The notes under the pieces: model-generated
The model's input: only the letters and a program-made list of their open reading frames with translations
The model's database searches: none
Told to the model about the DNA's origin: nothing
DNA from: an uncultured delta proteobacterium
Lineage (GTDB): Bacteria; Desulfobacterota; RBG-13-43-22
Assembly: GCA_963716045.1 (NCBI GenBank)
Contig: CAVQSS010000025.1
Span: forward strand, 102,304 to 166,303
Direction: 5' to 3'
Length of the DNA: 64,000 nucleotides
Shown: positions 9,241 to 54,395 of the stretch, piece after piece
Layout of the letters: the number at the start of each line of letters is the position of its first letter
Position numbering within the stretch: position 1 is the first letter of the stretch
Program-made: the position numbers and the translations under genes

Positions 9241-9378
9241 GCCTTCCTCCCTTTTCGATCACCGAAACAACTTCTCTTTCCCTTTTCTTAAATCAAAAAA
9301 GCCTATCGGTGTCAACGAAAGAAAATGCCGCTGCGCGTATAATACAAATGATCTCAAAACAGCATCAACATCATAGAA

Positions 9379-9463
9379 CGTCATTCCCGCAGCGCTTCTG
9401 TGCGGGAATCCCGGCTTTTCTCTGGGAACATTGGATCCCCGATAAAGCCATTCGGGGATGACG
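9379..9463 (+). repeat. REP-like double-hairpin intergenic element (family A)
   Basis: cgtcattcccgcagcgcttctgtgcgggaatcc...ggatccccgataaagccattcggggatgacg. Confidence 0.8.
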
Positions 9464-9592
9464 AGAAGACCACCTGTAAATACCATTAGGGGACTGATGA
9501 CAAATATTATTGCTATTTATGCTACGGCGGTTCATTGCATTCCATTTCCCCTTTGTGCTACACTAATCCAATTTTGCAAGGAGCGGAACCTT

Positions 9593-16567: not shown

Positions 16568-17092
16568 TTATTTGCCTTTTTTGCCCGGACAAAGAATTGT
16601 ATACAGGTCTTCTTCGCTGGAATCCTTTCCGATCGGGTGGCTGGTTATAAACTCCTCTAAAAAACAGGCCCGCGACCCGTTCCCGATCTCTCGCTGCTGC
16701 TCATCGTAATCGGCGATCGACAACACCTGATAGGTCCGGTCAGTGCAATAGAGGGCCATCCGGATCCGGGTGGACTCGTAGCGGTCCGACACGGATTTGG
16801 GGACTTTCGCCCGGGCCATTTCCTGGGCCCGGTATCTCTTTCCATCTTTGGTGGCAATCAAGTTGGTCCAGACTTGAACCACATCCGGTTTCGGACGGAG
16901 CACCCGTCCGGGATCATACAGACAAAGATAGTGTTCATTGACGCTGTAAAACTGCCAATCCACGCCCCAGACCATATCAACCGGGATCAGGAATAGAATG
17001 GAATAAAAAACTAACCATTGGATTTTGGACCTTCGTGCTTGTTTCGGATTTCGGGCTTCGAATTTCGAATTTATTGATCTTAACTTGTTCAT
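16568..17092 (-). CDS. Hypothetical membrane-anchored protein
   Basis: 174-aa ORF with one N-terminal TM segment. Its first ~17 codons are encoded by a short repeat element (17041-17075), so the true start is uncertain. Confidence 0.45.
   Translation of the reverse strand: MNKLRSINSKFEARNPKQARRSKIQWLVFYSILFLIPVDMVWGVDWQFYSVNEHYLCLYDPGRVLRPKPDVVQVWTNLIATKDGKRYRAQEMARAKVPKSVSDRYESTRIRMALYCTDRTYQVLSIADYDEQQREIGNGSRACFLEEFITSHPIGKDSSEEDLYTILCPGKKGK
17041..17075. repeat. Short repeat GTTTCGGATTTCGGGCTTCGAATTTCGAATTT
   Basis: Near-identical copy at 28198-28229 with an inverted partner at 28063-28097; related to 20101-20122. Confidence 0.65.
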
Positions 17093-22155: not shown

Positions 22156-22304
22156 AAAGGGTGAAAATCGTAAACATTGCTGGTTCAGCAATGGAATCAA
22201 AGGGCGGATAGGGAGGAGGCGCGAAAAAAAGATCGCCAACTTGCTTCTTATCCGCCTTTGGTCTTAGATATAAATGGTCTCAAAGTAGATGCAACACCTT
22301 AGAG

Positions 22305-22389
22305 CGTCATTCCCGCAGCGCTTCTGAGCGGGAATCCAGTCTTTTCTTAAGGGACATTGGATCCCCGATAAAGGCCTTCGGGGATGACG
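22305..22389 (+). repeat. REP-like double-hairpin element (family A)
   Basis: cgtcattcccgcagcgcttctgagcgggaatcc...ggatccccgataaaggccttcggggatgacg; spurious ORF 22264..22452. Confidence 0.8.
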
Positions 22390-22437
22390 AGATACGAATA
22401 GCGTAAAGACTGCTCTTAAAAAAAACGGGTCTGAACG

Positions 22438-23484
22438 ATGCAAAGCGATCACCCTTTTGATTTCTTATTTCAATGGCATTTGACGGAAAAATGCAATCTG
22501 CATTGTCTCCACTGTTATCAGGAGAAAGGGGATTTGGAGGAACTGACTTTTCCTGAGATCAAAGAAACCCTGAACGAGATATCTCTTATGCTGGAAGACT
22601 GGTCGAAGATCTATGGCCTGGCTTTCCAGACCAGCATCAATGTTACCGGAGGAGAACCTTTCTTACGACCCGATCTGTTTCCCATTCTTGAAGAAATGCG
22701 CCAACAGGGGTTTGACCTTTATCTCCTTTCCAACGGGACCCTCCTGGACCGGGAAAAAGCTCGCCGTCTGGGCCGCCTGCCGATACGGGGAGCACAGATC
22801 AGCCTGGAAGGGTTGGAAAAAACCCATGAGGCCCTGCGGGGAAAAGGCAGTTTTGCCGCGGCGCTGAAAGGGATCGGTTATCTGATTGAGGCCGGGGTCC
22901 CGGTCACCATCAATACGACTTTATCCGATCTCAACCGGGAGCAATTCTTAGAAATGATCCCCTTGGCCCAGGCCCTGGGGGCTCAGCGACTGGGGTTCTC
23001 CCGATTGATTCCCGCCGGTCAGGGGGCACTGCTTTCTGCCAATCTACTAAATCCGCATCAAGTCCGGGACCTATATCAGGATATCCTTTCCCTCATTCCC
23101 GAGGGATTGGAACTGGTGAGCGGGGACCCGCTTTTCCGGCAAATGGAGTCGGACCCCGTAAAGGATGACCTGGGAATCATCCCCCTGGGAGGATGCGCGG
23201 CGGGGGTGTCCGGTTTGACTTTGATGGCCGACGGCACGGTCACTCCCTGCCGCCGCTTGCCGGTCCCCCTCGGGAATGTGCGCCGGGACTCCCTGCGTGA
23301 AATTTGGAGCGGTTCCCCGGTGCTGGATAAGCTGCGGGACAAAAACAGCTACCAGGGAAAATGCGGCCGCTGCCGCCGATGGGCCGCCTGCCGGGGATGC
23401 CGGGCCATGGCCTATGCCTTTTCCCGGGCCGGGGGCCGTCCCCATCTCTTGGGAGAAGACCCGCAATGTTTTTTGGAGCCCTAA
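22438..23484 (+). CDS. Radical SAM/SPASM-domain protein (RiPP-maturase-like)
   Basis: CNLHCLHC (Cx3Cx2C) 18 aa from the N-terminus; C-terminal Cys-rich SPASM (GGCAAGVSG...CRRLP...GKCGRCRRWAACRGC); paralogous to 28285..29793. Confidence 0.8.
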   Translation: MQSDHPFDFLFQWHLTEKCNLHCLHCYQEKGDLEELTFPEIKETLNEISLMLEDWSKIYGLAFQTSINVTGGEPFLRPDLFPILEEMRQQGFDLYLLSNGTLLDREKARRLGRLPIRGAQISLEGLEKTHEALRGKGSFAAALKGIGYLIEAGVPVTINTTLSDLNREQFLEMIPLAQALGAQRLGFSRLIPAGQGALLSANLLNPHQVRDLYQDILSLIPEGLELVSGDPLFRQMESDPVKDDLGIIPLGGCAAGVSGLTLMADGTVTPCRRLPVPLGNVRRDSLREIWSGSPVLDKLRDKNSYQGKCGRCRRWAACRGCRAMAYAFSRAGGRPHLLGEDPQCFLEP

Positions 23485-23523: not shown

Positions 23524-23955
23524 TCAAGGGGTAATGAGTTCCAGGGCCTCCCGCCCGCCGTCAACAGCCTTCACCGGCAACTGCTGATCCAGGGTAGCCA
23601 GTCGGCCGCCTTGATGGACAGCCAATCCTAAGAGGTAGGCATCGGTGATTTGGGCGTGGGTGAGAAGCACTTCGCGCTTGAACAGGTCGCGAATACTAAG
23701 GTTTTCGCTCCAGAAGCGATGTTCCTTGTCTTTACAAAACCGTCGTAAAATAGCCAGGGCCGCCGCCACATCCCCCGGCCGGTTGGGATATCGGGGATGG
23801 CTGGCAATTCGGACGAAGCCGTTTTCGGTCAGCGGACAAGTTGCCCAGGAATTCCTTCCTCTTTTGCCGAACCATTGGTGGGCCGCTTCGTGATGAACAT
23901 GCATCGGATCGCAGAGGGCCAGCAGGACGTTGATATCTAAGAGATAAGTAGTCAC
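23524..23955 (-). CDS. PIN-domain toxin (VapC)
   Basis: MTTYLLDINVLLALCDPMHVHHEAAHQWF... Confidence 0.75.
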   Translation of the reverse strand: MTTYLLDINVLLALCDPMHVHHEAAHQWFGKRGRNSWATCPLTENGFVRIASHPRYPNRPGDVAAALAILRRFCKDKEHRFWSENLSIRDLFKREVLLTHAQITDAYLLGLAVHQGGRLATLDQQLPVKAVDGGREALELITP

Positions 23956-24179
23956 GACCGTTCATCCCGCAGCCGGTTGACCAATTCCAGGGTGGCCGCC
24001 CCGGCCTTCTTTTGGATCGGGAACAGCGGGGCCCCGTTCCGGGTGCTGCCGGTTCTCTGCCGGGTCAACGCCTGCCGACAGAGGTTCGACAACACTTTTC
24101 CTATGGAAAGCCTTTGCTGCCGGGCAATTTCTTTAGCGGCCAGGAGAACGTCCTCTTCGACATCCAAGGTAGTTCGCAT
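23952..24179 (-). CDS. VapB-type antitoxin
   Basis: ATG 24179 after GGAGG; MRTTLDVEEDVLLAAKEIARQQRLSIGKVLS...; overlaps the PIN gene by 4 nt. Confidence 0.65.
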   Translation of the reverse strand: MRTTLDVEEDVLLAAKEIARQQRLSIGKVLSNLCRQALTRQRTGSTRNGAPLFPIQKKAGAATLELVNRLRDERS

Positions 24180-24340
24180 AATTCCTCCAAGAAAATGGTT
24201 AAAATCATAAGTCATCAAACATCAAATGTCAATCGGCTATTTCCCACCATCCCCCTCAACCCGTCCTCGAAACAAAATAATTGGTCTGACCTTATTTTAT
24301 CTGTTACTATTAGAGCGTATCTAACGGAGGTGACAAGCCG

Positions 24341-26430
24341 ATGAACTTCTCCAACAATCCTAACCCCCCGGGAAACGCTTTCCCCCTTGGAGCCACGGTC
24401 TATCCGGAGGGCGTCAATTTCAGCGTCTATTCCAAAAACGCCGCCGGAGTGGAACTGCTCCTGTTCGACCGGGCCGATGACGCCCGCCCGGCCCGGGTCA
24501 TTCCTCTGGAAGCAAACAAAAACCGGACCTATTTTTACTGGCACGTTTTCGTCCCCGGCCTGCAATGCGGACAGATCTACGGCTTCCGCGTATCCGGCCC
24601 GTATGAACCGGAAAAAGGGCTGCGTTTTGACGGCCAGAAGGTTCTGCTGGATCCCTACGGCAAGGCCTTGGCGACGCCGCCTAATTACAGCCGTCTCGCC
24701 GCCGGCCTTCCGGGGGACAACACGGCCACGGCCATGAAAAGTGTGGTGGCGGATTTGAGCCTTTACGATTGGGAAGGGGACGCCCCGCTCCGGCGCCCTT
24801 TTTCCAATACCATTATTTATGAACTGCACGTCCGCGGGTTCACCCGCCATCCCAGTTCGGGTGTGCCGGCGGATAAGCGGGGCACCTATGTGGGGTTGAT
24901 CGAGAAGATCCCCTACCTGCGGGAATTAGGAATAACCGCCGTGGAACTCCTGCCGGTCTTTCAATTCGATGAACAGGACGCGCCCCCCGACTTCAAGAAC
25001 TACTGGGGCTACAGCCCGATCAGCTTCTTCGCCCCTCACGGGGGTTACTGTTCCTGCCGGGACCCTCTCGGTCCGCTGGATGAATTCCGGGATATGGTCA
25101 AGGCCCTGCACCGATCCGGAATCGAGGTGATCCTGGACGTAGTCTTTAACCACACCACTGAAGGGCACCAATACGGTCCGACGCTTTGCTACCGGGGTTT
25201 TGAAAACCGGGCCTACTACATCCTGGAAGCCGCCACCGCTGAGTACGCCAACTATTCGGGTTGCGGCAACACCCTCAATTCCGGCAACGCCATCGTCCGG
25301 CGGATGATCATCGACAGTCTGCACCACTGGGTCAAGGAGATGCACGTGGACGGCTTCCGTTTTGATCTGGCCGCCATTCTCTCCCGGGATGAAACCGGCC
25401 AACCCCTGGCCAATCCCCCGGTCCTCTGGGATATCGAATCCGACCCGGTCCTGGCCGGCACCAAGCTGATTGCCGAGGCCTGGGACGCGGCCGGGCTTTA
25501 CCAGGTGGGCAGCTTTGTCGGGGAAAGCTGGAAGGAATGGAACGGCAAATTCCGGGATGATGTGCGGGGCTTTATCAAAGGCGACCGCGGCGCCGTTTCC
25601 GGAGTGGCCTCCCGGCTGCTGGGCAGCCCGGACCTTTACGGCGGGCAGGAACGCGAGCCGGAACAAAGCATCAATTTCATTACCTGCCACGACGGTTTCA
25701 CCCTGAATGACCTGGTCTCCTACAACAGCAAACACAACGAGGCCAACGGCGAGAAGAACCGCGACGGGACCGACGACAACCTGAGTTGGAACTGCGGGGT
25801 GGAAGGTCCCGCGGACAACCCGGAAATTGAAAGGCTCCGCAACCGCCAGGTAAAGAACTTTCTGACCGTCACCTTTCTGGCCCTGGGGGCCCCCATGCTC
25901 CTGATGGGCGACGAGGTCCGCCGGACCCAGGGGGAAACAACAACGCCTACTGCCAGGACAACGAAATCAGTTGGTTCGATTGGGACCGGCTGGCTGAACA
26001 CGGCGATATACACCGTTTCGTAAAAAACCTGATCGCGGCCCGCCTGCGCACGAACACCTTCACCCCCAGCCAGGAGTTGACCCTGAGCCAGATCCTCCGG
26101 CAGGCCCGTATTCAGTGGCACGGGGTCAAGCTCAGCCGGCCCGATTGGAGTCCGGATTCCCACAGCCTGGCCTTCAGCGCCTGGAGCCGCCGAGGCCGGC
26201 TCTTGACCCACATTATGCTGAACGCCTACTGGGAGCCCCTGTCCTTTGAACTGCCGCCCGTTCAAAACCTGCAGGGCAAGGCCTGGCACCGGTGGATCGA
26301 CACCGCGCTGGACTCCCCCGAGGACATCGGCACCTGGGCCCACGCCCCGGCCGTTCCCGGATCGACCTACCCGGTGCAGCCCCGATCGATTGTGGTGCTG
26401 ATGGAACGGATTGCAAAAGATTCATCCTGA
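24341..26430 (+). CDS. glgX: Glycogen debranching enzyme GlgX, interrupted by a 1-nt homopolymer indel near 25928-25936
   Basis: 24341..26023 encodes the isoamylase N and catalytic domains up to MLLMGDEVRRTQG; 26077..26430 continues in the +1 frame. The restored junction reads GGNNNAYCQDNEISWFDWDRL..., which is a conserved GlgX motif. Confidence 0.75.
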
Positions 26431-26482
26431 CAAGAGAAATTCACGTCGAGCGTTATCATTTTAACCCGGCCCGTGAAGGGAT

Positions 26483-26515
26483 CGTCATTCCCGCAGTGCT
26501 TTTGGGCGGGAATCC
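26483..26515 (+). repeat. REP-like element, first hairpin only (family A)
   Basis: cgtcattcccgcagtgcttttgggcgggaatcc directly upstream of the GIY-YIG gene. Confidence 0.65.
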
Positions 26516-26529
26516 ATCAAGGATTTTGC

Positions 26530-26823
26530 GTGCCTAAACAGTTCTATGTTTATATCCTGGCCAGCAAACGAAACGGAACGCTCTACATTGGTGTAACCTC
26601 GAATCTGGTTCAGAGGACTTGGCAGCATAAGGAAGGTCAGGTAGAAGGTTTTTCAAAAAAATATGGCGTAAAGAATCTTGTTTACTTTGAAGTGCATGAG
26701 ACGGCAGAAAGCGCTTTGACTCGAGAGAAACAGATGAAGAAATGGGAAAGGGCGTGGAAAATCAAGTTGATCGAACGAAATAATCCTGAATGGCGAGACT
26801 TAACCGATATGATCGTCTCCTAG
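26530..26823 (+). CDS. Small GIY-YIG nuclease-domain protein
   Basis: GTG 26530: (M)PKQFYVYILASKRNGTLYIGVTSNLVQRTWQHKEG...; ~42% GC; flanked by REP-like elements. The upstream part of the longer ORF is REP-encoded. Confidence 0.65.
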   Translation: MPKQFYVYILASKRNGTLYIGVTSNLVQRTWQHKEGQVEGFSKKYGVKNLVYFEVHETAESALTREKQMKKWERAWKIKLIERNNPEWRDLTDMIVS

Positions 26824-26852: not shown

Positions 26853-26901
26853 TCCAAATATCTTTGATAAATAGTCCCAAAATAGGTACAACATCATAAA
26901 T

Positions 26902-26986
26902 CGTCATTCCCGCAGCGCTTCTGGGCGGGAATCCATGTTTTTCTTAAGAAATACTGGATCCCCGATAAAAACCTTCGGGGATGACG
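26902..26986 (+). repeat. REP-like double-hairpin element (family A)
   Basis: cgtcattcccgcagcgcttctgggcgggaatcc...ggatccccgataaaaaccttcggggatgacg. Confidence 0.8.
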
Positions 26987-27016
26987 AAAAATTAGCCTCA
27001 AAAGAAAGGAGTCATT

Positions 27017-28062: not shown

Positions 28063-28232
28063 TTTGGTTAGAAATCCGAAACTCGAAACACCTCTTCCCC
28101 TGGACGGCATGGTCTTCGAAGGGGGGAATCAACGCTTATCTCCTCCCGATCAGGGGGGAAAAGTTTCGGTCATTTGACTTTTGGTCATTGCTGTTTGTTT
28201 CGGATTTCGTGCTTCGGATTTCGAATTTAAAA
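28063..28232. repeat. Inverted pair of GTTTCGGATTTCG-type short repeats bracketing ~100 bp (MITE-like or bidirectional terminator region)
   Basis: agaaatccgaaactcgaaacac (28075-28097) versus gtttgtttcggatttcgtgcttcggatttcgaattt (28195-28229), in a convergent intergenic gap. Confidence 0.45.
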
Positions 28233-28284: not shown

Positions 28285-29793
28285 TCACCTAACCATAAAA
28301 CAATAGGGGTCCCGGTCCTGGAAGATATCCAGGCCCATTCCATAGGTCACGGCCAGGCAGCCCCCGCAGACCGGACGAATCGGACAGGCGCGGCAGGCCG
28401 CGGTGCCGGCCCGGTAGGGCCGCGCCGGTTCCGAATCGTACAGTTCGAGCAGACTGTTTTCCAGTATGTTGCCCAGGGGGGAGGGCAGCTTCCGGCAGGC
28501 ATGCACTTCGCCGTCGGGCAGGACGGTGATAAAATTGAAGGCCGCGCTGCAGCCGAAACCGGCGCAGCCCCCGAAGAGGGGGATCCCCTTTCGATGATGG
28601 AGGATATTGATCAGGTTGTCCTTGATCCCCATAACCGGGTTTTTTTCCGCTGCCCGCAGGTAGGCTTCCAGAAAAGCGGCATATTCCCGGCGGCCGGGGC
28701 CCTGCAGATTGGCCCCCTCCCCCACCTGGGAAAGGCGGTTGAAAAAGAAGCTGTCGGCCCTGCCCTGAAGCCGTTCGGCCAGGGGGATCACCTGATCCAG
28801 ATTGTCCCGGGTCAGCGTCAGCATGACCATGGAATAGATGTTCAGCTCCTTAAGGACCTCCAGGAATTCCATCACCCGGTCAAAGTGCCCCGAACCGCGG
28901 ATCCAGTCGTTATGCTCCCGCAGCCCTTCCAGGCTGACCTGAAAAAAATGGGGTTCCCGGATGGCCCGGATTTCCCGCAGCCGATCGCGGGAGGCGGGGT
29001 TCCCCAGGATGGCCGTCCCAAAACCCAACTCTCCCGCCGCCCGGTACAGTTCGTTGAACCGGGGATGAAGCAGGGGATTGCCGCCGGTGAAACTGACCTG
29101 ACCTTGAACCCGCTTTTCCCGGCAGAATCGATCCAGGTCGTTCAGAATTTTCAACTCCTGCTCCCAGGTCAGGGGGGAGCGCGGACTGCGGTCGTAGCAA
29201 TGCTTGCAGTGGAGGTCGCAGGCCTGAGTGATGTGCCACTGGAGGGTAAAAGTCGGGGATTCCAGGAATTCCCGCTCCCGGACGACGCTGTGGGGATAAC
29301 CGGCCGGGTCTCTGCGGATCTTCGACCGGGGAATGATCAGGAGTCCCTCCGCGGCGGCCCGCTCCAGTGCGTCCTCGATGGCCGCCGGCGGGACCCCGCC
29401 GGCGGCGGCGGCGGATTCCGGGGCCACTTCCTCCAGCACGATCTTCAGCACTAACAGGTCTTCTTCCCGGGCCGCCCGGAACAGGACCTCTCCCGTCTCT
29501 GCCTTCCGCCAGACCACGACCAGCTCCTCACCCGGTTCCGGAACAACGGACTCCCCTTTCCCCGCGGCCTGGACCAGGGGAACAAGGTTTTTATAAGAAA
29601 ATTGCATTAGCCGCAGGGCGGGGTTGACGATCACCCGATCAGGTCCCGGATCACCCTCCGCGGGCCCCAGGCCCGCCTGATGAAGGACCCATTCCAGGCG
29701 GGCCAGATCGGAGAGGAAATCGGGGCGGCCGCCCGCCGGGGAAGTTGCCGCCAAAAGCCCCGGGAAATCCTCCAGGGAGCTTCCGGCCTCCAT
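28285..29793 (-). CDS. Radical SAM/SPASM protein with an N-terminal PqqD-like RRE domain (RiPP-maturase-like)
   Basis: ATG 29793. Residues ~80-170 resemble PqqD/RRE (ELVVVWRKAETGEVLFRAAREEDLLVLKIVLEE...AIEDALERAAAEGLLI). Core CDLHCKHC; SPASM C-terminus (GGCAGFGCSAAFN...CRKLP...CRACPIRPVCGGC). Confidence 0.8.
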   Translation of the reverse strand: MEAGSSLEDFPGLLAATSPAGGRPDFLSDLARLEWVLHQAGLGPAEGDPGPDRVIVNPALRLMQFSYKNLVPLVQAAGKGESVVPEPGEELVVVWRKAETGEVLFRAAREEDLLVLKIVLEEVAPESAAAAGGVPPAAIEDALERAAAEGLLIIPRSKIRRDPAGYPHSVVREREFLESPTFTLQWHITQACDLHCKHCYDRSPRSPLTWEQELKILNDLDRFCREKRVQGQVSFTGGNPLLHPRFNELYRAAGELGFGTAILGNPASRDRLREIRAIREPHFFQVSLEGLREHNDWIRGSGHFDRVMEFLEVLKELNIYSMVMLTLTRDNLDQVIPLAERLQGRADSFFFNRLSQVGEGANLQGPGRREYAAFLEAYLRAAEKNPVMGIKDNLINILHHRKGIPLFGGCAGFGCSAAFNFITVLPDGEVHACRKLPSPLGNILENSLLELYDSEPARPYRAGTAACRACPIRPVCGGCLAVTYGMGLDIFQDRDPYCFMVR

Positions 29794-29896
29794 TTGGGCT
29801 TGCAGGCATTCCAGTCTTCAGGTGTTAAATAGGAACGGGTTACAGGAAAGATCTTTTCGAGGGATTCCATAGAATGATTTTAGCACTGTTTAGGAC

Positions 29897-29925
29897 TCCA
29901 TTAGTACGAAAATGAACATCGAACA
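29897..29925 (-). repeat. AT-rich short repeat (TTCGATGTTCATTTTCGTAC family), reverse orientation
   Basis: tacgaaaatgaacatcgaacag. Confidence 0.55.
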
Positions 29926-30074
29926 GTTGAGGGGCGAGTCGAAGGGGAGGCGCCCAACATCCGAATAAAAAAGGGGGATAACTGAAGCTCGAAAAAAATT
30001 GACTGATTAAACCCCCATGCTCGGGGGGGGTCATTAAAGTCTCGAAAATATGAACCGTTAGATATCCCGGTCTT

Positions 30075-30158
30075 CGTCATTCCCGAGCGCTTCGCCTGCT
30101 GTCATCCTGAGCCCTCGGCCTACATGTCTGGATCCCGAGCGAAGCATCGGGGATGACG
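30075..30158 (+). repeat. REP-like element, divergent variant
   Basis: cgtcattcccgagcgcttcgcctgctgtcatcctgagccc...ggatcccgagcgaagcatcggggatgacg. Confidence 0.6.
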
Positions 30159-30270: not shown

Positions 30271-30742
30271 CCCAAAATTCCTTAAGACAAAATGAACGTC
30301 GGGCATTACTCGAACTCAAATCTAAAAAGGGGGCCAGGACAGATACGACTTGGGATCGTATGGGTCCCGGCCCCTGGAAAAACTGCCGGCTCATAGGCGC
30401 CGGCTGGCAATGGTTAAAAACATCTTGGTTTAGTGGCTCTCTGATTGGTCGGATAGCGCCACCGGCGCTATTTCTTCCCGCTTCAGCTACTCGGGGCGGG
30501 AGTTTTGGTTCCGCTTCAGGAGCTTGGCGCGGCGGGTTTCTGGTCGGTGCTACCTGCACCGGGTTTAGTCCCGCCTCAGGCGCTGCCGGCTTTTTTCTCT
30601 GTTTGGGTGCTACCTGCATCCGGTTTGGCCCCGCCTCAAGCGCTCTTGCCATTGGTGCACCCGGAAACCGCGAAACTGGAGCCGGCAATCAGGCTGGCAA
30701 TGCTCAAACCGGCCAACATCTTCTTGAGCTGGTTCATTTCCA
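30224..30742 (-). CDS. Putative secreted lipoprotein with 20-aa tandem repeats, spread over three frames (possibly two compensating 1-nt indels)
   Basis: AAAGGAGG SD plus ATG 30742 gives MEMNQLKRCWPV*. The +1 frame (30636..30719) encodes a signal peptide and lipobox, MLAGLSIASLIAGSSFAVSGC. The frame of the SD-ATG re-opens at 30688 into EAGPNRMQVAPKQRKKPAAP / EAGLNPVQVAPTRNPPRQAP repeats, encoded by 60-bp tandem DNA repeats at 30480-30665. Confidence 0.3.
30480..30665. repeat. ~60-bp tandem repeat (about 3 units)
   Basis: ggtgctacctgcaccgggtttagtcccgcctcaggcgct... / ggtgctacctgcatccggtttggccccgcctcaagcgct... Confidence 0.7.
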
Positions 30743-30829
30743 TGCGTACTCACCTCCTTTCTGAATAATCAGTATAACCGATCCTTTTTTTAAAATGTAT
30801 AGAAAAAAACTATCAATTTAGAATCAGGC

Positions 30830-30921
30830 GGGGATCCCATAATCCCGCAGCGCTTCTGAGCGGGAATCCAGGCTTTTCTCCGGGGACATTGGATTCCCCA
30901 TAAAGACCTTCGAGGATGACG
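30830..30921 (+). repeat. REP-like double-hairpin element (family A variant)
   Basis: ...cccgcagcgcttctgagcgggaatcc...ggattccccataaagaccttcgaggatgacg. Confidence 0.75.
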
Positions 30922-30954
30922 AGAAGTTACCCGTAAATACGATGTTGGTTGGGG

Positions 30955-31413
30955 TTATTGTTTAAGGCCGGTGGGTAACCCGGGGGAATGTTGAAAAGGA
31001 TTGACTACTTGGACTCCACCAAAATTTTGGGCCTCTTGAAGATCTTCGGTGAGCAGATACTGACATTGGGTCAGTTGAGCTGCGGAAACGATCAGTGCAT
31101 CCCACCAGGAAAGGTTATTACGATCCTGTAGCTCCCAAGCTCCTTTAATCACTTGCCTATCAACGGGAAGGGGATTCCAGGCCATTAAAGCCTTTATATC
31201 TTCACGAGCCGTTGAAACCCTCAGGCCCGGTTGGAGCTTCCCGGTTACGGTCGCATAAAATTCCTGCAGGACCTGATAACTTATCCGTCCGTTTTTTTTA
31301 TCCCAGAGAAAGGTCATCCAGGCCAGGGCCTGCTTCTGTTTAACGGGTTCCGAACTATCCCGGCTGTAAACGAGCACATTGGTATCTACAAATACCTTAC
31401 TGTCGTCGTTCAT
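30955..31413 (-). CDS. PIN-domain toxin (VapC)
   Basis: ATG 31413: MNDDSKVFVDTNVLVYSRDSSEPVKQKQALAW...; the longer ORF is an N-terminal extension. Confidence 0.7.
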   Translation of the reverse strand: MNDDSKVFVDTNVLVYSRDSSEPVKQKQALAWMTFLWDKKNGRISYQVLQEFYATVTGKLQPGLRVSTAREDIKALMAWNPLPVDRQVIKGAWELQDRNNLSWWDALIVSAAQLTQCQYLLTEDLQEAQNFGGVQVVNPFQHSPGLPTGLKQ

Positions 31414-31633
31414 ACAGGTCCTCACGGGCTGGATATTTTTCTTTCGCCTTCTTAAGCGCCTGAGGGGGTTGCGCCAGGTATCGGTCCCTGGCCTTTTCAT
31501 AGGTTTGGTCGACCAGCATTTTTTCTTTGAGCATTTGCCCCACCAGGCGGGAAACGCTGATATCCAGTTCCGCCGCCCTGACCCTGGCCCACCGGGCAAC
31601 CTCTTCCTCCATGGTAATGGTTACATTTTTCAT
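31397..31633 (-). CDS. RHH/CopG-type antitoxin (VapB)
   Basis: ATG 31633: MKNVTITMEEEVARWARVRAAELDISVSRLVGQMLKEKM...; overlaps the PIN start. Confidence 0.6.
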   Translation of the reverse strand: MKNVTITMEEEVARWARVRAAELDISVSRLVGQMLKEKMLVDQTYEKARDRYLAQPPQALKKAKEKYPAREDLYERRQ

Positions 31634-31826
31634 GTCACAATTATAGTGTTCCACTGTTTTCGTGTCAACAAAAATCCATTGGGCAGACTTTCTGTCTTCT
31701 GACTCCGTATCTCATATGAAACCCCCATGCCCGGGGCGGGCACCCACGGACCCCTCGAACCCTGTTCTAGGTTTTTTTCGTATTGATTTGTCCAAATTTT
31801 TTTATAATCTGCTAAAATGAGCGTTT

Positions 31827-33063
31827 ATGGAACCCTTATTTGAACCCGGTCGGATAAACAGCCTGACCCTGAAGAACCGTTTCGTGCGCTCGGCCACCTG
31901 GGAGGGAATGGCGGCCGAGGATGGGTCGGTTACCGCTCCCCTGATCGACCTCTATAGCACTCTGGCCGATGGCGGGGTGGGTCTGATCATCACCGGCCAC
32001 AGCTATGTCCACCCCTCGGGGAAACATTCGCCCCGGCAACTCGGCAGTTATTCGGACGACCTGATCCCCGGACTTCAGGAATTGACCCGGGCCGTCCATG
32101 ACCGGGAGGGCCGGATCGTAATGCAACTGAATTACGGGGGGGCCTATCTCTCCCGGTCCCGGGTGGGCCAAATGACCCCGGAGGATATCCGGGCGGTCGG
32201 CGCGGCCTTTGCCCGGGCCGCCCGCCGGGCAGAGCAGGCCGGGTTCGACGGGGTTCAGATCCTGGCCGCCCACGGTTTCTTTCTGAGTCAACTCCTTTGT
32301 CCCCGGTACAATCCCCGCACCGATGCATACGGCGGTTCGATTGAAAACCGGGCCCGGGCCCTGGTGGAGGTGGTTGAGGCCGTCCGAGGACGGATTAAAC
32401 CCGAATACCCCCTCTTGGTGAAAATCAACAGCCGGGACCTGATCGAGGACGGACTTCGGCTGGAGGAATCCCTCCAGGTAGGCCGAAGGCTGGAGGCGGC
32501 CGGCGTCGATGCCCTGGAGATCAGCGGCGGCCTGTTAAATTTGCCCAACCTGCTCCAGGATAAAGACACCGCCGCGGAGGACTTTCCCTTTTTCCGAGAC
32601 GAAGCCCGGGCCTTTAAGCGGCAAATCCAACTCCCGGTGATCTTGGTGGGCGGGATCCGTTCTTTCCCCACCCCCGGAACGCCTCCTGGAAGAAGGGACC
32701 GCCGATTTCATCGCCCTCTGCCGGCCCCTGATCCGGGAGCCGGATTTGATCAACCGCTGGCAAAGGGGCGACCGGCAAAAAGCCGCCTGCCTTTCCTGCA
32801 ATAACTGCGTGGAACAGTTAAAGCAGGGGGGCGGCCTGGCCTGCCGGCCTCTGGAGCCTCAGGAAAAGGAGACCTTCTTTGCCCAGAAAACGGAATCCCT
32901 TCCGGCCGGCCCGCCCTTTCCGCCCACAATTTCCTATCAGGTGTCCTTCGGCCTGGAGGAGTGGGACGGAAATTTTCTCCCGGTGATCAAAGTTCAGATG
33001 GTCAAAGACGGAAAGGTCCTGAATGGGCGGCGTATCCTTCCCGTCCGGGACCGACGATTTTGA
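31827..33063 (+). CDS. Old-Yellow-Enzyme family NADH:flavin oxidoreductase (2,4-dienoyl-CoA-reductase-like) with a 1-nt indel in the C5 run at 32671-32675
   Basis: MEPLFEPGRINSLTLKNRFVRSATWEGMA...HGFFLSQLLCPRYNPRTDAYGGSIENRAR...VILVGGIRSF. Removing one C restores ...PTPERLLEEGTADFIALCRPLIREPDLINRWQRG... (ORF 32746..33063), the conserved OYE C-terminus. Confidence 0.75.
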
Positions 33064-33120
33064 AAAAATCAGCCAAATAGTCAAAAATATTGTTTAAAAG
33101 GAATTTGTCGATTGACAGGC

Positions 33121-35222: not shown

Positions 35223-36275
35223 ATGAACCGTTTAATGAACCGACGGGCCTTTATCCAGGGACTGGGTATCCTGAGTGCCGGCTGGACCGTCAAAGGCTGG
35301 ACCGCTCCGCTGAAACCATCCCCTTTTCCTCCTCCCTCTCTCAAACCTCCGAGACCAGAAACCTGATGGGAACCTTTGTCACCATTACGCTCCTTCATCC
35401 CTCTCGTGACCAGGCCCAGGCCGTCCTCGGTGCGGCCTTTCAGCGCATGGACGGCGCTGATCCGCCTGTTTGACCGCCATGATCCCGGATCGGCATTGAG
35501 TGTTTTAAACGAAAAGGGGAGCCTTTCCGATCCCCCCCCGGAACTCCTGAAGCTGCTCGGGCGTTTCATGGCGATCCATGCCCGGACCGGGGGGCTCTTT
35601 GAGGTAACCATCAAGCCCGTGTTGGACCTTTATGAATCCGCAAAGGAAGGGGGCCGCCTGCCCGCGGCCCCGGCTATACGGGAGGCCTTGAGCCGGGTGG
35701 GAGCTGCCGGACTGGAAATCAGTCCCCAAAAAATCGCTTTGTGAAAAGAAGGCATGGGGATCACCCTCGACGGAATAGCCAAAGGATACATTGTCGATGA
35801 AACCATCGCCTTCATCCGGCAGAAGGGGATCCGGCACGCCCTGGTTGATGCGGGGGGCGACCTCAGGGTCATGGGGGGGCGAGCCGACGGTTTGCCCTGG
35901 CGTATCGGCGTTTATGATCCTGCCGGCGAGACAAAACCGCAAGAGTCGATTTTTCTGCGGGAGGGTGCGGTCGCCACCTCGGGAAACTATATGGTCTTCT
36001 TTGACCGGGAAAAGGTCCATCATCATATTCTCTCTCCCGAAACCGGAACCTCGCCACCCTGGGCGACGGGAACCACGGTCATTGCCCCTTCAGCCGAAAC
36101 GGCCGATGCCCTGGCCACCTCGCTTATGCTGTTCAGCCCGGAAAAGGGCCTGGCCTTTATAAACCGCCAGGAGCGTCTGGCGGCCTTGGTCCTGCACAAG
36201 GAAGGGAAGAAAATGCCTTCCAGCAGATGGCCTCGAAATAACCCCACGAGAGGAGGAAGAACCGACCATGTCTAA
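35223..36275 (+). CDS. apbE: FAD:protein FMN transferase ApbE with Tat signal, fragmented over at least 4 frames by homopolymer indels
   Basis: ATG 35223: MNRLMNRRAFIQGLGILSAG (twin-arginine); then MGTFVTITLLHPSRDQAQ.. / LSVLNEKGSLSD..GGLFEVTIKPVLDLYE.. / GITLDGIAKGYIVDETIAFIRQKGIRHALVDAGGDLRVMG..WRIGVYDP..AVATSGNYMVFF..HHILSPETGTSP..TVIAPSAETADALATSLML, colinear with ApbE. Confidence 0.7.
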
Positions 36276-36849
36276 AAGATCCGTTCTTATCCCGGTCCTT
36301 TTGGGACTGGGGATGCTTTTATCTTTATCCGGAGGGCTGAACGATCTCCAAGCCCAGGGGAAAAAGTTCATTCAAAAGGGGGCCGCCTTTCCGGAAATCG
36401 CCCTCAAAGCCCAGGCCAAGGACAAGGCTTACCTGGGAATTTCCGGAGGCGATTTTAAGGTCAAGGACCTGAAGGCCGAGGTCATTCTGGTGGAGATATT
36501 TGACGTCTATTGTCTGCCCTGTCAAAAACAGGCGCCCCTCTACAAGCAGCTTTACGGTTTGATTCAATCGAATCCGGCCGCCAGGGAAAAAATCAAGATG
36601 ATCGGGATCGCTACGGGGAATGAAGATGCGGAGATCAAGAAATTTCAAGATCATTTCCAGATACCCTATCCGGTTATTTCCGATCCAAAATTCCTCCTCC
36701 ATGAGGCGGTGGGAGGACCCCCGGCCCCCTTTTCCATTATTGTGAGAAGAGACCCGGGGGGGAAATCCCTCCTGGTGGCCGACACGCATCTGGGCTTAAA
36801 CAGCGACATGCAGGGACTGTTCAAGCAGTTGCAGTCTCTGGTGCGTTAG
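36268..36849 (+). CDS. Periplasmic TlpA-like thioredoxin-fold protein (CxxC)
   Basis: Signal peptide; FDVYCLPCQKQAPLY; start overlaps the apbE stop. About 60% identical to the N-terminal half of the next gene, including the conserved ribosome-binding-site region. Confidence 0.75.
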   Translation: MSKRSVLIPVLLGLGMLLSLSGGLNDLQAQGKKFIQKGAAFPEIALKAQAKDKAYLGISGGDFKVKDLKAEVILVEIFDVYCLPCQKQAPLYKQLYGLIQSNPAAREKIKMIGIATGNEDAEIKKFQDHFQIPYPVISDPKFLLHEAVGGPPAPFSIIVRRDPGGKSLLVADTHLGLNSDMQGLFKQLQSLVR

Positions 36850-36924
36850 GGGGACGTCGGCACCGGCCCCTCAGCCCAAATGGAGTTGCCCTGAGCTGGT
36901 CCCGACGTTGCTCAGATCGGGTAT

Positions 36925-36957
36925 GGATTCCCGCCCAAAATCGATAGGGGAATGACG
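36925..36957 (-). repeat. REP-like element fragment
   Basis: ggattcccgcccaaaatcgataggggaatgacg. Confidence 0.5.
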
Positions 36958-37073: not shown

Positions 37074-37117
37074 ACCATGAGTCAGGCCCGTGCGTGACCA
37101 GGGAAGGAAGAACCCTC

Positions 37118-38239
37118 ATGTCTAAAAGATCCGCTTTTATCCCGATCCTGTTGGGAATAGGGATACTTATATTATTTTCCGGATGGCTGACCGCTATCCA
37201 GGCGCAGGAAAAGACCTTGATCAAGGGGGGGGACCCCTTTCCGGAAGCTGCCCTGAGAACCCCGGATCAGGCCAAGGACAGGGCCTATCTGGGGATTTCC
37301 GGGGGCGATCGTTTCGCGATCAAAGATCTGAAGGCCAAGGTCGTTTTGGTGGAAATTTTAAATGTCTATTGCGTGGCCTGTCAAAACCAGGCCCCCCTCT
37401 ACAACCAGCTATTTGCTTTAATCCAATCGAAACCGGAAACCAGGAACCAGATTAAAATGATCGGAATCGCCGTGGGAAATGACGACGAGGAGGTTAAGAG
37501 CTTTCGAGATCATTTCCAGATACCCTATCCCATTATTTCCGATCCCCAGTATGTCCTCCACGCGGCGGTGGGAGGAGGGCCGACTCCCTTTTCAATTATC
37601 GTCAGAAGGGATCCCCGGGAAAAATCCGCCCTGGTGGCCGACGCCCACTTGGGCGTCAATAAAGATTATCAAGGACTGCTCCGGCAGATGAAAACTCTGG
37701 CGCGGATGAGTCCGGCGGCTATTCGGGAAAAAGAACGAAATACCAAGGCCCGGGTCATAAGTCTCAAGCCCCCCCTCAGTGAAGAAGAGATTCAAGCCAA
37801 GGTGAAGGAGGCCTTTATCGAAGGAGGGGGGCGACTATCCGGCTTCGAGAAGGTTTCCCTGAAGAAAGGAAAGGGGATTTATACGGGGGTCGTCGAAAAA
37901 AACGGGGGAAGCCGGCGCCTCTTTGCCCAGGTGGTCAGCGAATTACCCACTTGTGACGTCTGCCATGATACCCATTTTATTTACACCTTCGAGACCGGGG
38001 GGAAGATTCTCCAGTTCATCCCCATTCAATTGTCCAAGTGGGGGAATGAGGATTGGGATGAGGCCGACATTTCCAAGATGCGGCAAAAGATTGTGGGACG
38101 ATATATATACCATCCTTTCGCCTTCAAAGCCAAGGTCGACGCGGTCACTACGGCCACCATTACCTCGGCCGCTATCTATAGGGGTCTGAATGAAGGGCAG
38201 GTCATTTTTCGGGAACTCAAGGCCAGGGGTTTGATTTAA
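37118..38239 (+). CDS. TlpA-like thioredoxin fused to a C-terminal FMN-binding (FMN_bind) domain; predicted ApbE flavinylation substrate
   Basis: ATG 37118; signal peptide; LNVYCVACQNQAPLY (CxxC); C-terminus CDVCHDTHF...KAKVDAVTTATITSAAIYRGL matches the NqrC/RnfG D-x-x-[ST]-G-A-[ST] flavinylation motif. Confidence 0.75.
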   Translation: MSKRSAFIPILLGIGILILFSGWLTAIQAQEKTLIKGGDPFPEAALRTPDQAKDRAYLGISGGDRFAIKDLKAKVVLVEILNVYCVACQNQAPLYNQLFALIQSKPETRNQIKMIGIAVGNDDEEVKSFRDHFQIPYPIISDPQYVLHAAVGGGPTPFSIIVRRDPREKSALVADAHLGVNKDYQGLLRQMKTLARMSPAAIREKERNTKARVISLKPPLSEEEIQAKVKEAFIEGGGRLSGFEKVSLKKGKGIYTGVVEKNGGSRRLFAQVVSELPTCDVCHDTHFIYTFETGGKILQFIPIQLSKWGNEDWDEADISKMRQKIVGRYIYHPFAFKAKVDAVTTATITSAAIYRGLNEGQVIFRELKARGLI

Positions 38240-53770: not shown

Positions 53771-53806
53771 TCTGAGAGTCTCTTTATTGGGATTATGGCT
53801 AGATTC

Positions 53807-53892
53807 TCGTCATCCCCGAAGGCCTTTATCGGGGATCCAATGTTTCTTAAAGAAATCCTGGATTCCCGCCCAGAAGCGCTGCGGGAATGACG
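53807..53892 (-). repeat. REP-like double-hairpin element (family A), reverse orientation
   Basis: cgtcatccccgaaggcctttatcggggatcc...ggattcccgcccagaagcgctgcgggaatgacg. Confidence 0.8.
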
Positions 53893-53894
53893 CT

Positions 53895-54395
53895 TTAGTT
53901 TTTTTCAAGTACCAGGTCCGCCATCAGCGGACTGTCCGCGGAAAGGGCCGCGCAACTGTTATAAAGCCTGGGATTAGCCCGGACCATCTCGGCAAAAAAA
54001 TCTTTCTCTCCGGACCGGTCTTTAGGGGCCAGCGCCAGGACGTCCCTGGTAAAGGACAAGATGACGCCGCCGCAGCATTCCTCCACCAGCAGGGCTAACG
54101 TTTCCATCAAAGGACCCTTGGCGATAAGCCCCCGGAGGATCTTCTTGATCCCCGGACCGACCCGGGCGCCGAGCACTTGCCGAAGGTCCTGGTCGATGTC
54201 CGTCCGGTCCCCTTCACCGGACCGTCTGATTTGCCCCCTCACGCCGACAATTTCCAGGTCAGGAGACTTAACCAGGATCATTGCCCAGGCCTCCATCAGC
54301 GTGTCCTGGACCCGGCAGGTGGATCGGGTCGTCTGATCATCCACCCTTTCCACGGTGGTGCAACGATTTCTGGTAAAACAAAGGATGTCCGCCAT
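53895..54395 (-). CDS. Hypothetical protein (DUF2889-like, tentative)
   Basis: 166 aa; Cys pattern C..C....C...ECCGG; paralogous to the N-terminus of 52634..53770. Confidence 0.5.
   Translation of the reverse strand: MADILCFTRNRCTTVERVDDQTTRSTCRVQDTLMEAWAMILVKSPDLEIVGVRGQIRRSGEGDRTDIDQDLRQVLGARVGPGIKKILRGLIAKGPLMETLALLVEECCGGVILSFTRDVLALAPKDRSGEKDFFAEMVRANPRLYNSCAALSADSPLMADLVLEKN

Follow-up and report, generated by a model that had tools for sequence, protein, structure and literature searches.

A probable SbtA/SbtM cassette for a thio(seleno)oxazole peptide in an uncultured delta proteobacterium

The stretch of 64,000 nucleotides (nt) analysed here, hereafter the window (assembly GCA_963716045.1, contig CAVQSS010000025.1, positions 102,304 to 166,303 of the forward strand), belongs to an uncultured delta proteobacterium of the Desulfobacterota lineage RBG-13-43-22. 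On its minus strand it carries sbtM, a gene encoding a radical S-adenosylmethionine (SAM)/SPASM enzyme, and about 0.7 kb upstream on the same strand sbtA, a short gene interrupted by four in-frame TGA codons. The two very probably constitute an SbtA/SbtM cassette for a thio(seleno)oxazole peptide of the ribosomally made, post-translationally modified class (RiPP). The system itself is already known, and the locus adds a further member. An earlier note, made from the sequence alone, had described the enzyme as a candidate RiPP maturase with a fused recognition domain and no annotated precursor; its observation is confirmed and its interpretation is largely right.

The SbtM family was predicted by Haft ('selenobiotic') and characterized in Geobacter lovleyi (PMC9204691, PMC11002830). 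According to these sources, G. lovleyi SbtM removes four hydrogens from a Gly-Cys or Gly-selenocysteine (Sec, written U in peptides) unit, yielding a thio(seleno)oxazole. Conversion of X-Cys/Sec to a 5-thio(seleno)oxazole, which lowers the mass by 4 Da and gives absorbance near 304-313 nm, is known for the G. lovleyi enzyme alone (PMC9204691).

The maturase SbtM and its precursor SbtA

The enzyme gene and its catalytic elements are located as follows:

28285-29793, minus strand: sbtM open reading frame (ORF) as assembled, 502 codons (502 aa), thio(seleno)oxazole radical SAM/SPASM maturase (TIGR04082)
28771-29232, minus strand: radical SAM core (Pfam PF04055 Radical_SAM, residues 188-341, 62 bits)
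29197-29220, minus strand: CxxxCxxC sequence motif, CDLHCKHC, residues 192-199 (C192, C196, C199)
28297-28564, minus strand: SPASM region with eight Cys (410, 415, 433, 467, 470, 476, 479, 498), putative auxiliary Fe-S clusters

The sbtM product matches the NCBIfam equivalog model TIGR04082 (SbtM) at 699.6 bits against a cut-off of 350, ORF residues 5-499 corresponding to profile positions 23-516. The second-ranked NCBIfam family, ACGX (TIGR04340), reaches 149.5 bits against a cut-off of 400 over residues 181-499; this is a match of the core only, leaving the N-terminal domain unmatched, and ACGX has a different precursor type. Pfam SPASM covers residues 415-471 (35.7 bits, cut-off 21.5) and TIGR04085 residues 415-498. 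All eight C-terminal Cys fall within the last 95 residues and, together with the radical SAM Cys, occupy columns that are at least 90% conserved in an alignment of 74 sequences. TIGR04082, Radical_SAM and SPASM together bear out the proposal of a radical SAM/SPASM RiPP maturase. The CDLHCKHC core and the C-terminal Cys cluster named in the earlier note are both present, and the segment it had singled out in the N-terminal part (ELVVVWRK...AEGLLI) lies at residues ~89-153. The closest solved sequence relatives of the core are CteB (5wgg) and SkfB (6efn). Protein database searches return 3217 SbtM homologues at E<=1e-20, many of them named SbtM or selenobiotic family peptide radical SAM maturase, and an exact-sequence lookup found no database record for the window protein. 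Judged by its sequence, SbtM is a clear member of a curated and biochemically characterized family and not an orphan; the idea of a RiPP maturase stands, and the label 'candidate' was too cautious, since the enzyme belongs to the characterized SbtM family.

The earlier note had found no precursor among ORFs of at least 60 aa nearby, which holds, and had suggested a small unannotated one. Such a gene is present upstream on the same strand, concealed by UGA codons, a cause outside the note. In the list below, L001 is the closest genome, and L081 and L082 are two other relatives.

30468-30743, minus strand: sbtA, 91 codons with four in-frame TGA and a TAG stop (30468-30470), from the translation with TGA read through and TIGR04081
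30751-30759, minus strand: Shine-Dalgarno sequence AAGGAGGTG, strong, 7 nt before the sbtA ATG, read from the sequence and conserved in L001, L081 and L082
30636-30638, minus strand: UGA1, codon 36, SAUGG, from the translation (SAUGG occurs at five U sites of the family)
30576-30578, minus strand: UGA2, codon 56, SAUGG, from the translation
30516-30518, minus strand: UGA3, codon 76, SSUSG, from the translation
30483-30485, minus strand: UGA4, codon 87, SSUSG, from the translation

With TGA read as U, the ATG at 30743 opens the peptide MEMNQLKKMLAGLSIASLIAGSSFAVSGCTNGKSA-U-GGAKPDAGSTQTEKKAGSA-U-GGTKPGAGSTDQKPAAPSS-U-SGTKTPAPSS-U-SGKK. Its leader (residues 1-26) matches TIGR04081, named 'SbtA family thio(seleno)oxazole RiPP natural product precursor', at 41.5 bits in the 91-aa form (U replaced by C) and at 44.2 bits in the 35-aa form, against a cut-off of 30.5. 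The Pfam scan of SbtA gave no match, and PF27804 (GSU1558_StbA-like) stands in the precomputed annotation of the L081 homologue. Read by eye, the N-terminus is laid out like a signal peptide: basic residues come first, then a hydrophobic segment and a lipobox-like VSGC. The core is rich in Gly, Ser and Lys, and its UGA codons lie in S-[AS]-U-[GS]-G motifs. All internal stops are TGA, and the frame and motifs run on past each of them. Mechanical ORF calling misses the gene because the four in-frame UGA codons are read as stops, leaving 35 codons that end at the first TGA; at a related locus public gene callers likewise annotate the 35-aa stub alone (PF27804 GSU1558_StbA-like).

Just downstream of UGA3, a 33-nt in-frame insertion (~30477-30509) creates the second SSUSG unit. 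It duplicates the last repeat unit in diverged form, is absent in L001 and is identical in L081 and L082. The DNA around sbtA (30420-30760) is ~94% conserved relative to L001, L081 and L082, whose SbtM proteins are only 86-88% identical. Very few synonymous changes are seen in sbtA, and their scarcity fits a constraint on the coding sequence at the RNA level, as would be exerted by a selenocysteine insertion sequence (SECIS). By sequence, sbtA with its four UGA codons is an ordinary member of the SbtA family.

Scanning one genome per species yielded 179 loci with SbtM relatives; the counts below refer to the best 80 of these 179, which have 50-86% identity and belong to Desulfobacterota, Nitrospirota, Brocadiia, Chloroflexota and other metagenome-assembled genomes (MAGs). 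The best genome match, MAG MFD02809.bin.1.206, is 86% identical. With TGA read as U, sbtM has an SbtA-like leader ORF as its neighbour in 74 of the 80 loci; this ORF mostly lies upstream on the same strand and sometimes downstream or on the opposite strand. The same precursor architecture is also found in L081 and L082. Among L008 (both strands), L017, L025, L035, L040 and L069, some loci carry two SbtA genes and others have sbtA downstream of sbtM. Clustering of all ORFs from the 80 loci revealed no conserved family beyond sbtM and its shadow frames, and no conserved DUF692 gene near sbtM. Because no other gene family is conserved, the cassette appears to comprise two genes without a protease or transporter of its own.

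The 66 unique SbtA peptides contain no U (6 peptides), one (8), two (16), three (24), four (11) or five (1), placed in the motif S-[GSA]-U-[SGT]-G; in all-Cys versions, Cys takes the identical positions. A lipobox-like Cys is present in 30 of the 66. The survey thus adds to the known system that the majority of SbtA precursors have two to four Sec codons, that nearly every internal UGA has its own coding-region hairpin, which fixes the peptide motif GAG[GS]T, and that the cassette occurs in MAGs of Desulfobacterota, Nitrospirota, Brocadiia and Chloroflexota. For annotation the lesson is that selenopeptide precursors are missed by gene callers: a characterized RiPP system looks like an orphan maturase because a 35-residue stub is all they report.

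Hairpins behind the UGA codons

Nearly every internal UGA of the family is followed, ~18 nt after its U, by a hairpin of 6 bp closed by a 5-nt loop (AGGUA, AGGUG, CGGGA or CGUGA, the second base always G), which in frame encodes G-A-G-[GS]-T. The window contains the following elements:

30605-30621, minus strand: hairpin 1, GGAUGC-AGGUA-GCACCC, with one A.C mismatch, 18 nt after the U of UGA1, −4.9 kcal/mol, family register
30545-30561, minus strand: hairpin 2, CGGUGC-AGGUA-GCACCG, perfect, after UGA2, encoding GAGST
30453-30471, minus strand: hairpin 4, AUAGCGCC-GGU-GGCGCUAU, 8-bp stem spanning the TAG stop and the 3′ untranslated region, −11.8 kcal/mol

The 60-nt segment with hairpin 2 has a folding energy of −24.7 kcal/mol (z −3.3), which none of 200 shuffles equalled. 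The stem of hairpin 4 is identical in L001, L081 and L082, with a single loop change, GGU to GGC, in L081. Downstream of UGA3, folding gave no canonical SECIS hairpin; the one stem there has 6 bp and encloses 14 nt, UGA4 among them. The hairpin 52 nt downstream could assist the decoding of UGA3, which would stretch the bacterial SECIS spacing rule.

Across the family, the 34 nt beginning at +13 fold with a mean of −10.3 kcal/mol at 161 U sites versus −5.6 kcal/mol at 47 Cys sites within the same motifs (Mann-Whitney p 1.5e-13). Covariation was assessed at 80 of the 102 internal U sites, after exclusion of near-duplicates, of sites close to a second TGA and of those lacking the motif. The helix is paired in 96.3% of cells, against 24-62% in slid registers. 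Two-sided changes occur in 86 cells compared with 22.8 +/- 3.6 in shuffles, none of 500 reaching 86, and five of the six pairs covary. The compensatory changes swap the encoded residues (G/D, A/T, T/S/V) yet keep the pairs, as in GGU...ACC to GAC...GUC; because they alter the amino acids, selection acts on the RNA. Cys-only relatives have neither the hairpin nor the GAGxT motif. From these sequence patterns we infer that the family hairpin is a bacterial SECIS element. In several SbtA peptides, with the endings ...SGUSU or ...GUNU, the final TGA may be a true stop or share the hairpin of its neighbour.

The recognition domain and related systems

The part of SbtM preceding the radical SAM core forms a distinct region:

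29284-29793, minus strand: N-terminal region, residues 1-170, modelled as a helical subdomain plus a beta3-alpha3 winged helix, DUF2063/NGO1945-like (AlphaFold2, Foldseek)

The AlphaFold2 model of residues 1-180, built from the alignment of 74 sequences (mean per-residue confidence, pLDDT, 83.3; predicted template-modelling score, pTM, 0.74), shows two helices followed by three strands and three helices. The winged-helix elements are E61-68, E86-96, E103-107, H110-120, H125-132 and H136-149 (pLDDT 83-89). In a Foldseek search against the PDB the model matches 3DEE, the DUF2063 prototype NGO1945 of Neisseria gonorrhoeae, with E 8.5e-5 and probability 1.00; the alignment spans 173 columns (TM 0.56/0.51) and covers the two-domain NGO1945 fold. 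The second significant match (E 5.6e-4) is chain 8hci_A of the TglHI complex, presumably the TglI partner subunit. The lasso peptide recognition protein TbiB1 (E 0.56-0.66) and a lasso B1 protein (E up to 0.92) are not significant in Foldseek, and generic helix-turn-helix (HTH) proteins score equally. The winged helix in isolation (residues 80-160, pLDDT 88.8) retrieves generic HTH domains only, all at E>0.1.

The earlier note had called this N-terminus a PqqD-like RiPP recognition element (RRE) and proposed comparison with hidden Markov models (HMMs) as the check. PqqD (PF05402) has no match in SbtM at E<=1 nor in 74 family members at E<=10, so that neither SbtM nor 73 homologues fit the PqqD HMM. 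Other RRE HMMs of Pfam gave no match either. The RRE part of the claim survives at the level of the DUF2063 fold, through 3DEE, and the PqqD part does not. DUF2063/NGO1945 proteins are treated as carrying a DUF2063-associated RRE (PMC12710340, PMC12668002, PMC11626156), and the model supports, at fold level, an RRE of this kind in SbtM, not one of the PqqD kind. With PqqD-type RRE maturases (PqqE/PqqD, CteB, SkfB, AlbA) SbtM shares a beta3-alpha3 winged helix placed before a radical SAM/SPASM core. It differs from them in the size of the recognition region (~170-195 residues), in the extra helical subdomain and in the missing PqqD HMM match; unlike both PqqD-type and lasso RREs, the SbtM domain finds its structural match among DUF2063 proteins.

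DUF2063 proteins are partners of MNIO enzymes that install 5-thiooxazoles on precursors with signal peptides (PMC11626156, PMC12668002, PMC12710340). Bufferins and captophorins (fontiphorin, oxazolin, gonophorin) are products of this type, each relying on an MNIO (DUF692) enzyme and a DUF2063 partner (BufC, PME1, NGO1945). These copper-binding 5-thiooxazole peptides are products of O2-dependent MNIO enzymes. Their precursors have a Sec-type signal peptide and recurring small-residue-Cys-Gly motifs, and the Cys-derived heterocycles account for −4 Da and absorb near 305 nm (PMC11626156, PMC12668002, PMC12710340). SbtM systems resemble them in the product heterocycle and in a recognition domain with the NGO1945 (3DEE) fold. 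In contrast, SbtM has its recognition domain fused to an O2-independent radical SAM/SPASM domain, where the MNIO systems use a separate O2-dependent iron enzyme. Conserved DUF692 genes are missing around sbtM, selenium would take the place of sulfur, and in sequence any likeness to Pfam DUF2063 stays below threshold.

The fold match links the SbtM system to the copper-binding thiooxazole peptides of aerobes and, by analogy, suggests a function for SbtA in metal binding in the anaerobe cell envelope. It is possible, though less likely than not, that the recognition module is a true homologue of the DUF2063/NGO1945 partners of MNIO enzymes. If it were, a single inherited recognition domain would serve both enzymatic routes so far known to lead to 5-thio(seleno)oxazoles in peptides, that of an anaerobic radical SAM enzyme and that of an O2-dependent iron enzyme. 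The two routes would also share a precursor logic, a signal-peptide leader followed by repeated small-residue-Cys/Sec-Gly units, and SbtA products would correspond, in anaerobes, to bufferins, as metal-binding peptides based on selenium and either periplasmic or anchored to lipid. Neither the SbtM-DUF2063 link nor the decoding of UGA3 through a distant hairpin was found in the literature searched, to which the primary SbtM paper did not belong. The basic classification of the system is unchanged by the survey and the fold match.

The G. lovleyi thio(seleno)oxazole system was reportedly described by Lewis et al. in 2021. With that SbtM/SbtA pair (also called SbtMa; TIGR04082/TIGR04081) the window shares the enzyme architecture, the precursor leader family, UGA codons predicted to encode Sec, three of the four with a hairpin directly downstream, small residues around Sec, and the format of a two-gene cassette of anaerobic Desulfobacterota and relatives. 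The window sbtA has four putative Sec codons, whereas a perspective paper on the SbtM family speaks of 'at least two', and the window motifs SAUGG and SSUSG differ from the quoted GGUG. The window locus further differs by one UGA without its own hairpin, a 674-nt spacer with a terminator, an assembly frameshift and an uncultured lineage.

Taking the characterized homologue and the MNIO systems as models, we propose the following course of events. SelB would read the hairpin ~18 nt after each UGA and insert selenocysteine; at internal sites the hairpin sits in the coding sequence and would thereby dictate the peptide motif G-A-G-[GS]-T. SbtM may then bind the precursor leader via its DUF2063-like, RRE-type N-terminal domain. 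Two rounds of SAM-dependent hydrogen abstraction at the Cys/Sec beta-carbon, shown for the G. lovleyi homologue only, would cyclize each X-Sec unit to a 5-seleno-oxazole with a loss of 4 Da per site. Since the locus has no dedicated protease or transporter, we propose that the product is exported by the general Sec protein-export pathway through its own signal peptide; SbtAM could then be the anaerobic, selenium-using, metal-binding counterpart of bufferins and captophorins. Finally, a terminator-like hairpin between sbtA and sbtM may lead to more precursor than enzyme transcript.

Locus integrity, alternative explanations and neighbourhood

The region between the two genes and the 5′ end of sbtM has these features:

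29794-29870, minus strand: conserved sbtM 5′ end, MESLEKIFPVTRSYLTPEDWNAC..., out of frame with the remainder, ATG at 29868-29870
30324-30374, minus strand: intrinsic-terminator-like hairpin (stem 30330-30374) followed by U5, ~95 nt after sbtA
30385-30404, minus strand: smaller GC hairpin GCCGGC...GCCGGC followed by a U-run, from a terminator scan, −14.1 kcal/mol, z −2.4

The family start lies 26 codons upstream of the assembled ORF start, and typical SbtM homologues are 525-550 aa long. The conserved start MESLEKIFPVTRSYLTPEDWNAC is out of frame because one base is missing near 29799-29801, where DNA alignment sets CTGC-AAGCCC in the window against CTTTAAAGCCC in L001. With one base inserted, the gene encodes 528 aa and matches TIGR04082 at profile positions 1-516 with 712.7 bits. 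The 79-aa ORF at 29631-29870 was rejected as a gene; it has no family match when scanned separately and is the out-of-frame sbtM 5′ end.

Two neighbouring genes, both within 9 kb, are also broken into several frames. A flavin oxidoreductase gene of the old yellow enzyme (OYE) type (Oxidored_FMN, 31827-33094, plus strand) is spread over three frames relative to its intact L082 homologue, and the glycogen-debranching gene glgX (CBM_48/alpha-amylase, 24341-26428, plus strand) over two relative to its intact L082 homologue, which points to several indel errors in the assembly of the window. The frame changes fall near 32670 and 33030-33066 in the oxidoreductase gene and near 25900 in glgX. In a related public assembly the aldolase gene is split. 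Because of these like defects in neighbouring genes and in the related assembly's aldolase, an assembly error is likelier than a real deletion, and the sbtM frameshift is likely an indel error of the assembly.

From the end of sbtA it is 674 nt to the sbtM ORF ATG and 597 nt to the upstream ATG. Measured to the ORF ATG, most relatives have ~100-290 nt and L001 has 487, the window spacer being the longest among loci with sbtA upstream on the same strand. Part of it consists of insertions relative to L001, and two spacer ORFs of 64 aa and 59 aa (29840-30034, 29901-30080) lie mostly in insertions absent from L001. The terminator-like hairpin (−32.2 kcal/mol, z −5.55, 0 of 200 shuffles as good) is kept with substitutions in L001.

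A number of points weigh against a cassette that is intact, co-expressed and decoded at all four UGA codons. As assembled, sbtM lacks 26 conserved N-terminal codons owing to the frameshift, and co-expression is not assured because of the 674-nt spacer and the strong terminator-like hairpin. UGA3 has no canonical hairpin, so the peptide may end there in some or all translations. No SECIS or other credible Rfam family was found by a gathering-threshold scan of the whole window or by an E<=10 scan of 30300-30800, and the tRNA scan of the window found no tRNA-Sec or any other tRNA gene. Selenocysteine insertion at the sbtA UGAs is predicted from sequence. The DUF2063 likeness lies at fold level, window SbtM having no match to Pfam DUF2063 (PF09836) or NGO1945_C (PF22106); weak matches occur among the 74 homologues (DUF2063 in 7, NGO1945_C in 5; best E 0.014), below membership. 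Searching the domain profile against PDB sequences gives nothing significant, only sigma-70 region 4 and S100 proteins. Export, lipidation and metal binding are proposed by analogy alone.

Some of these points could also mean that the cassette is a decaying remnant, in which the sbtM deletion is real, the first recognition-domain helix is lost, and sbtA is uncoupled by spacer and terminator. The frameshift relative to L001, L081 and L082, with 22 N-terminal profile positions lost, would fit this, as would the unusual length of the spacer and its insertions relative to L001. We consider such decay unlikely: OYE (three frames), glgX (two) and the split aldolase of the related assembly have like defects, the remaining 502 codons of sbtM and the whole of sbtA are intact, and sbtA is ~94% conserved over four relatives.

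Two further explanations carry far less weight. If the UGAs were ordinary stops, sbtA would yield a 35-residue signal-like peptide or none, and the downstream repeats would be non-coding RNA structure, in line with standard ORF calling (35 aa), the stub annotated by public gene callers and the lack of an Rfam SECIS match. This is very improbable, given that the frame and the S-x-U-x-G motif persist across one to five TGAs in dozens of lineages, TGA being the sole in-frame stop in those peptides before a TAA or TAG terminator. Moreover, relatives with Cys (TGC/TGT) at the same motif positions have no hairpin, the hairpin keeps a fixed in-frame distance, compensatory changes preserve its pairs and alter residues, and the characterized homologue accepts Sec peptides (PMC9204691). 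Least credible of all is a non-RiPP radical SAM/SPASM role for the enzyme, for instance that of an anSME-like enzyme (resembling anaerobic sulfatase-maturating enzymes) or of a heme/cofactor maturase, with a small ORF nearby by coincidence. Its SPASM core does give sub-threshold matches to AhbD, NirJ, the mycofactocin maturase and others, and SbtM chemistry is formally similar to the thiol oxidation by anSME (PMC9204691). However, those matches are all far below cut-offs (AhbD 67 bits versus 500, NirJ 62 versus 515), the 25 best NCBIfam families include no anSME model, the SbtM model scores twice its cut-off, and 74 of 80 loci, drawn from four phyla, have a precursor gene alongside. The comparison with non-RiPP families such as anSME, raised in the earlier note as a possible objection, brought none above cut-off and the SbtM model as the one that fits.

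Around the SbtA/SbtM cassette, L081 and L082 share the gene order oxidoreductase, sbtA, sbtM, aldolase, glgX. The window differs by a PIN-domain toxin gene (30955-31654, minus strand) with a small upstream partner ORF between sbtA and the oxidoreductase gene, a place where L081 and L082 have none; a second such gene with its own small upstream partner ORF lies at 23524-24218 (minus strand), the two giving Pfam PIN scores of 43 and 27 bits, respectively.

The sequence upstream of the assembled sbtM ORF had been described as containing repeats and a C8 homopolymer. The homopolymer is real (30023-30030, C8 on the minus strand and G8 on the plus strand), while no repeat family of at least 28 nt occurs in 29794-30060. 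The nearby repeat is an element of ~100-125 nt resembling repetitive extragenic palindromes (REP) or miniature inverted-repeat transposable elements (MITE), with the palindromic core CGTCATTCCCGCAGCGCTTCTG.GCGGGAATCC. Full copies lie at 9342-9466, 22268-22392, 26865-26989, 30800-30924 and 53797-53912 (inverted), and short ones at 26481-26517 and 36924-36957. The copy at 30800-30924 is upstream of sbtA, directly upstream of its ribosome-binding site. When translated, the copies produce recurring 'WIPAQKRCGND' pseudo-ORFs. An ORF with a GIY-YIG nuclease domain (26473-26823, plus strand, 62.6 bits) overlaps a short copy of the palindrome with its 5′ end.

A 56-nt direct repeat, TTTCGGATTTCG...CGAATTTA, occurs at 28174-28229 and 17018-17073 (84% identical), one copy standing in the convergent intergenic region between fba and the sbtM 3′ end. 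Two stretches of ~500 nt (36267-36760 and 37117-37619), 75-88% identical and ~855 nt apart, suggest tandem paralogous genes. The scan for further selenoproteins in the window (in-frame TGA plus hairpin) returned seven candidates, of which the five translated look non-coding. A second radical SAM/SPASM protein of 348 aa with the motif CNLHCLHC is encoded 5 kb from sbtM (22438-23484, plus strand); it stays below all NCBIfam cut-offs (AhbD 175.7 bits versus 500, NirJ2 164, ACGX 160).

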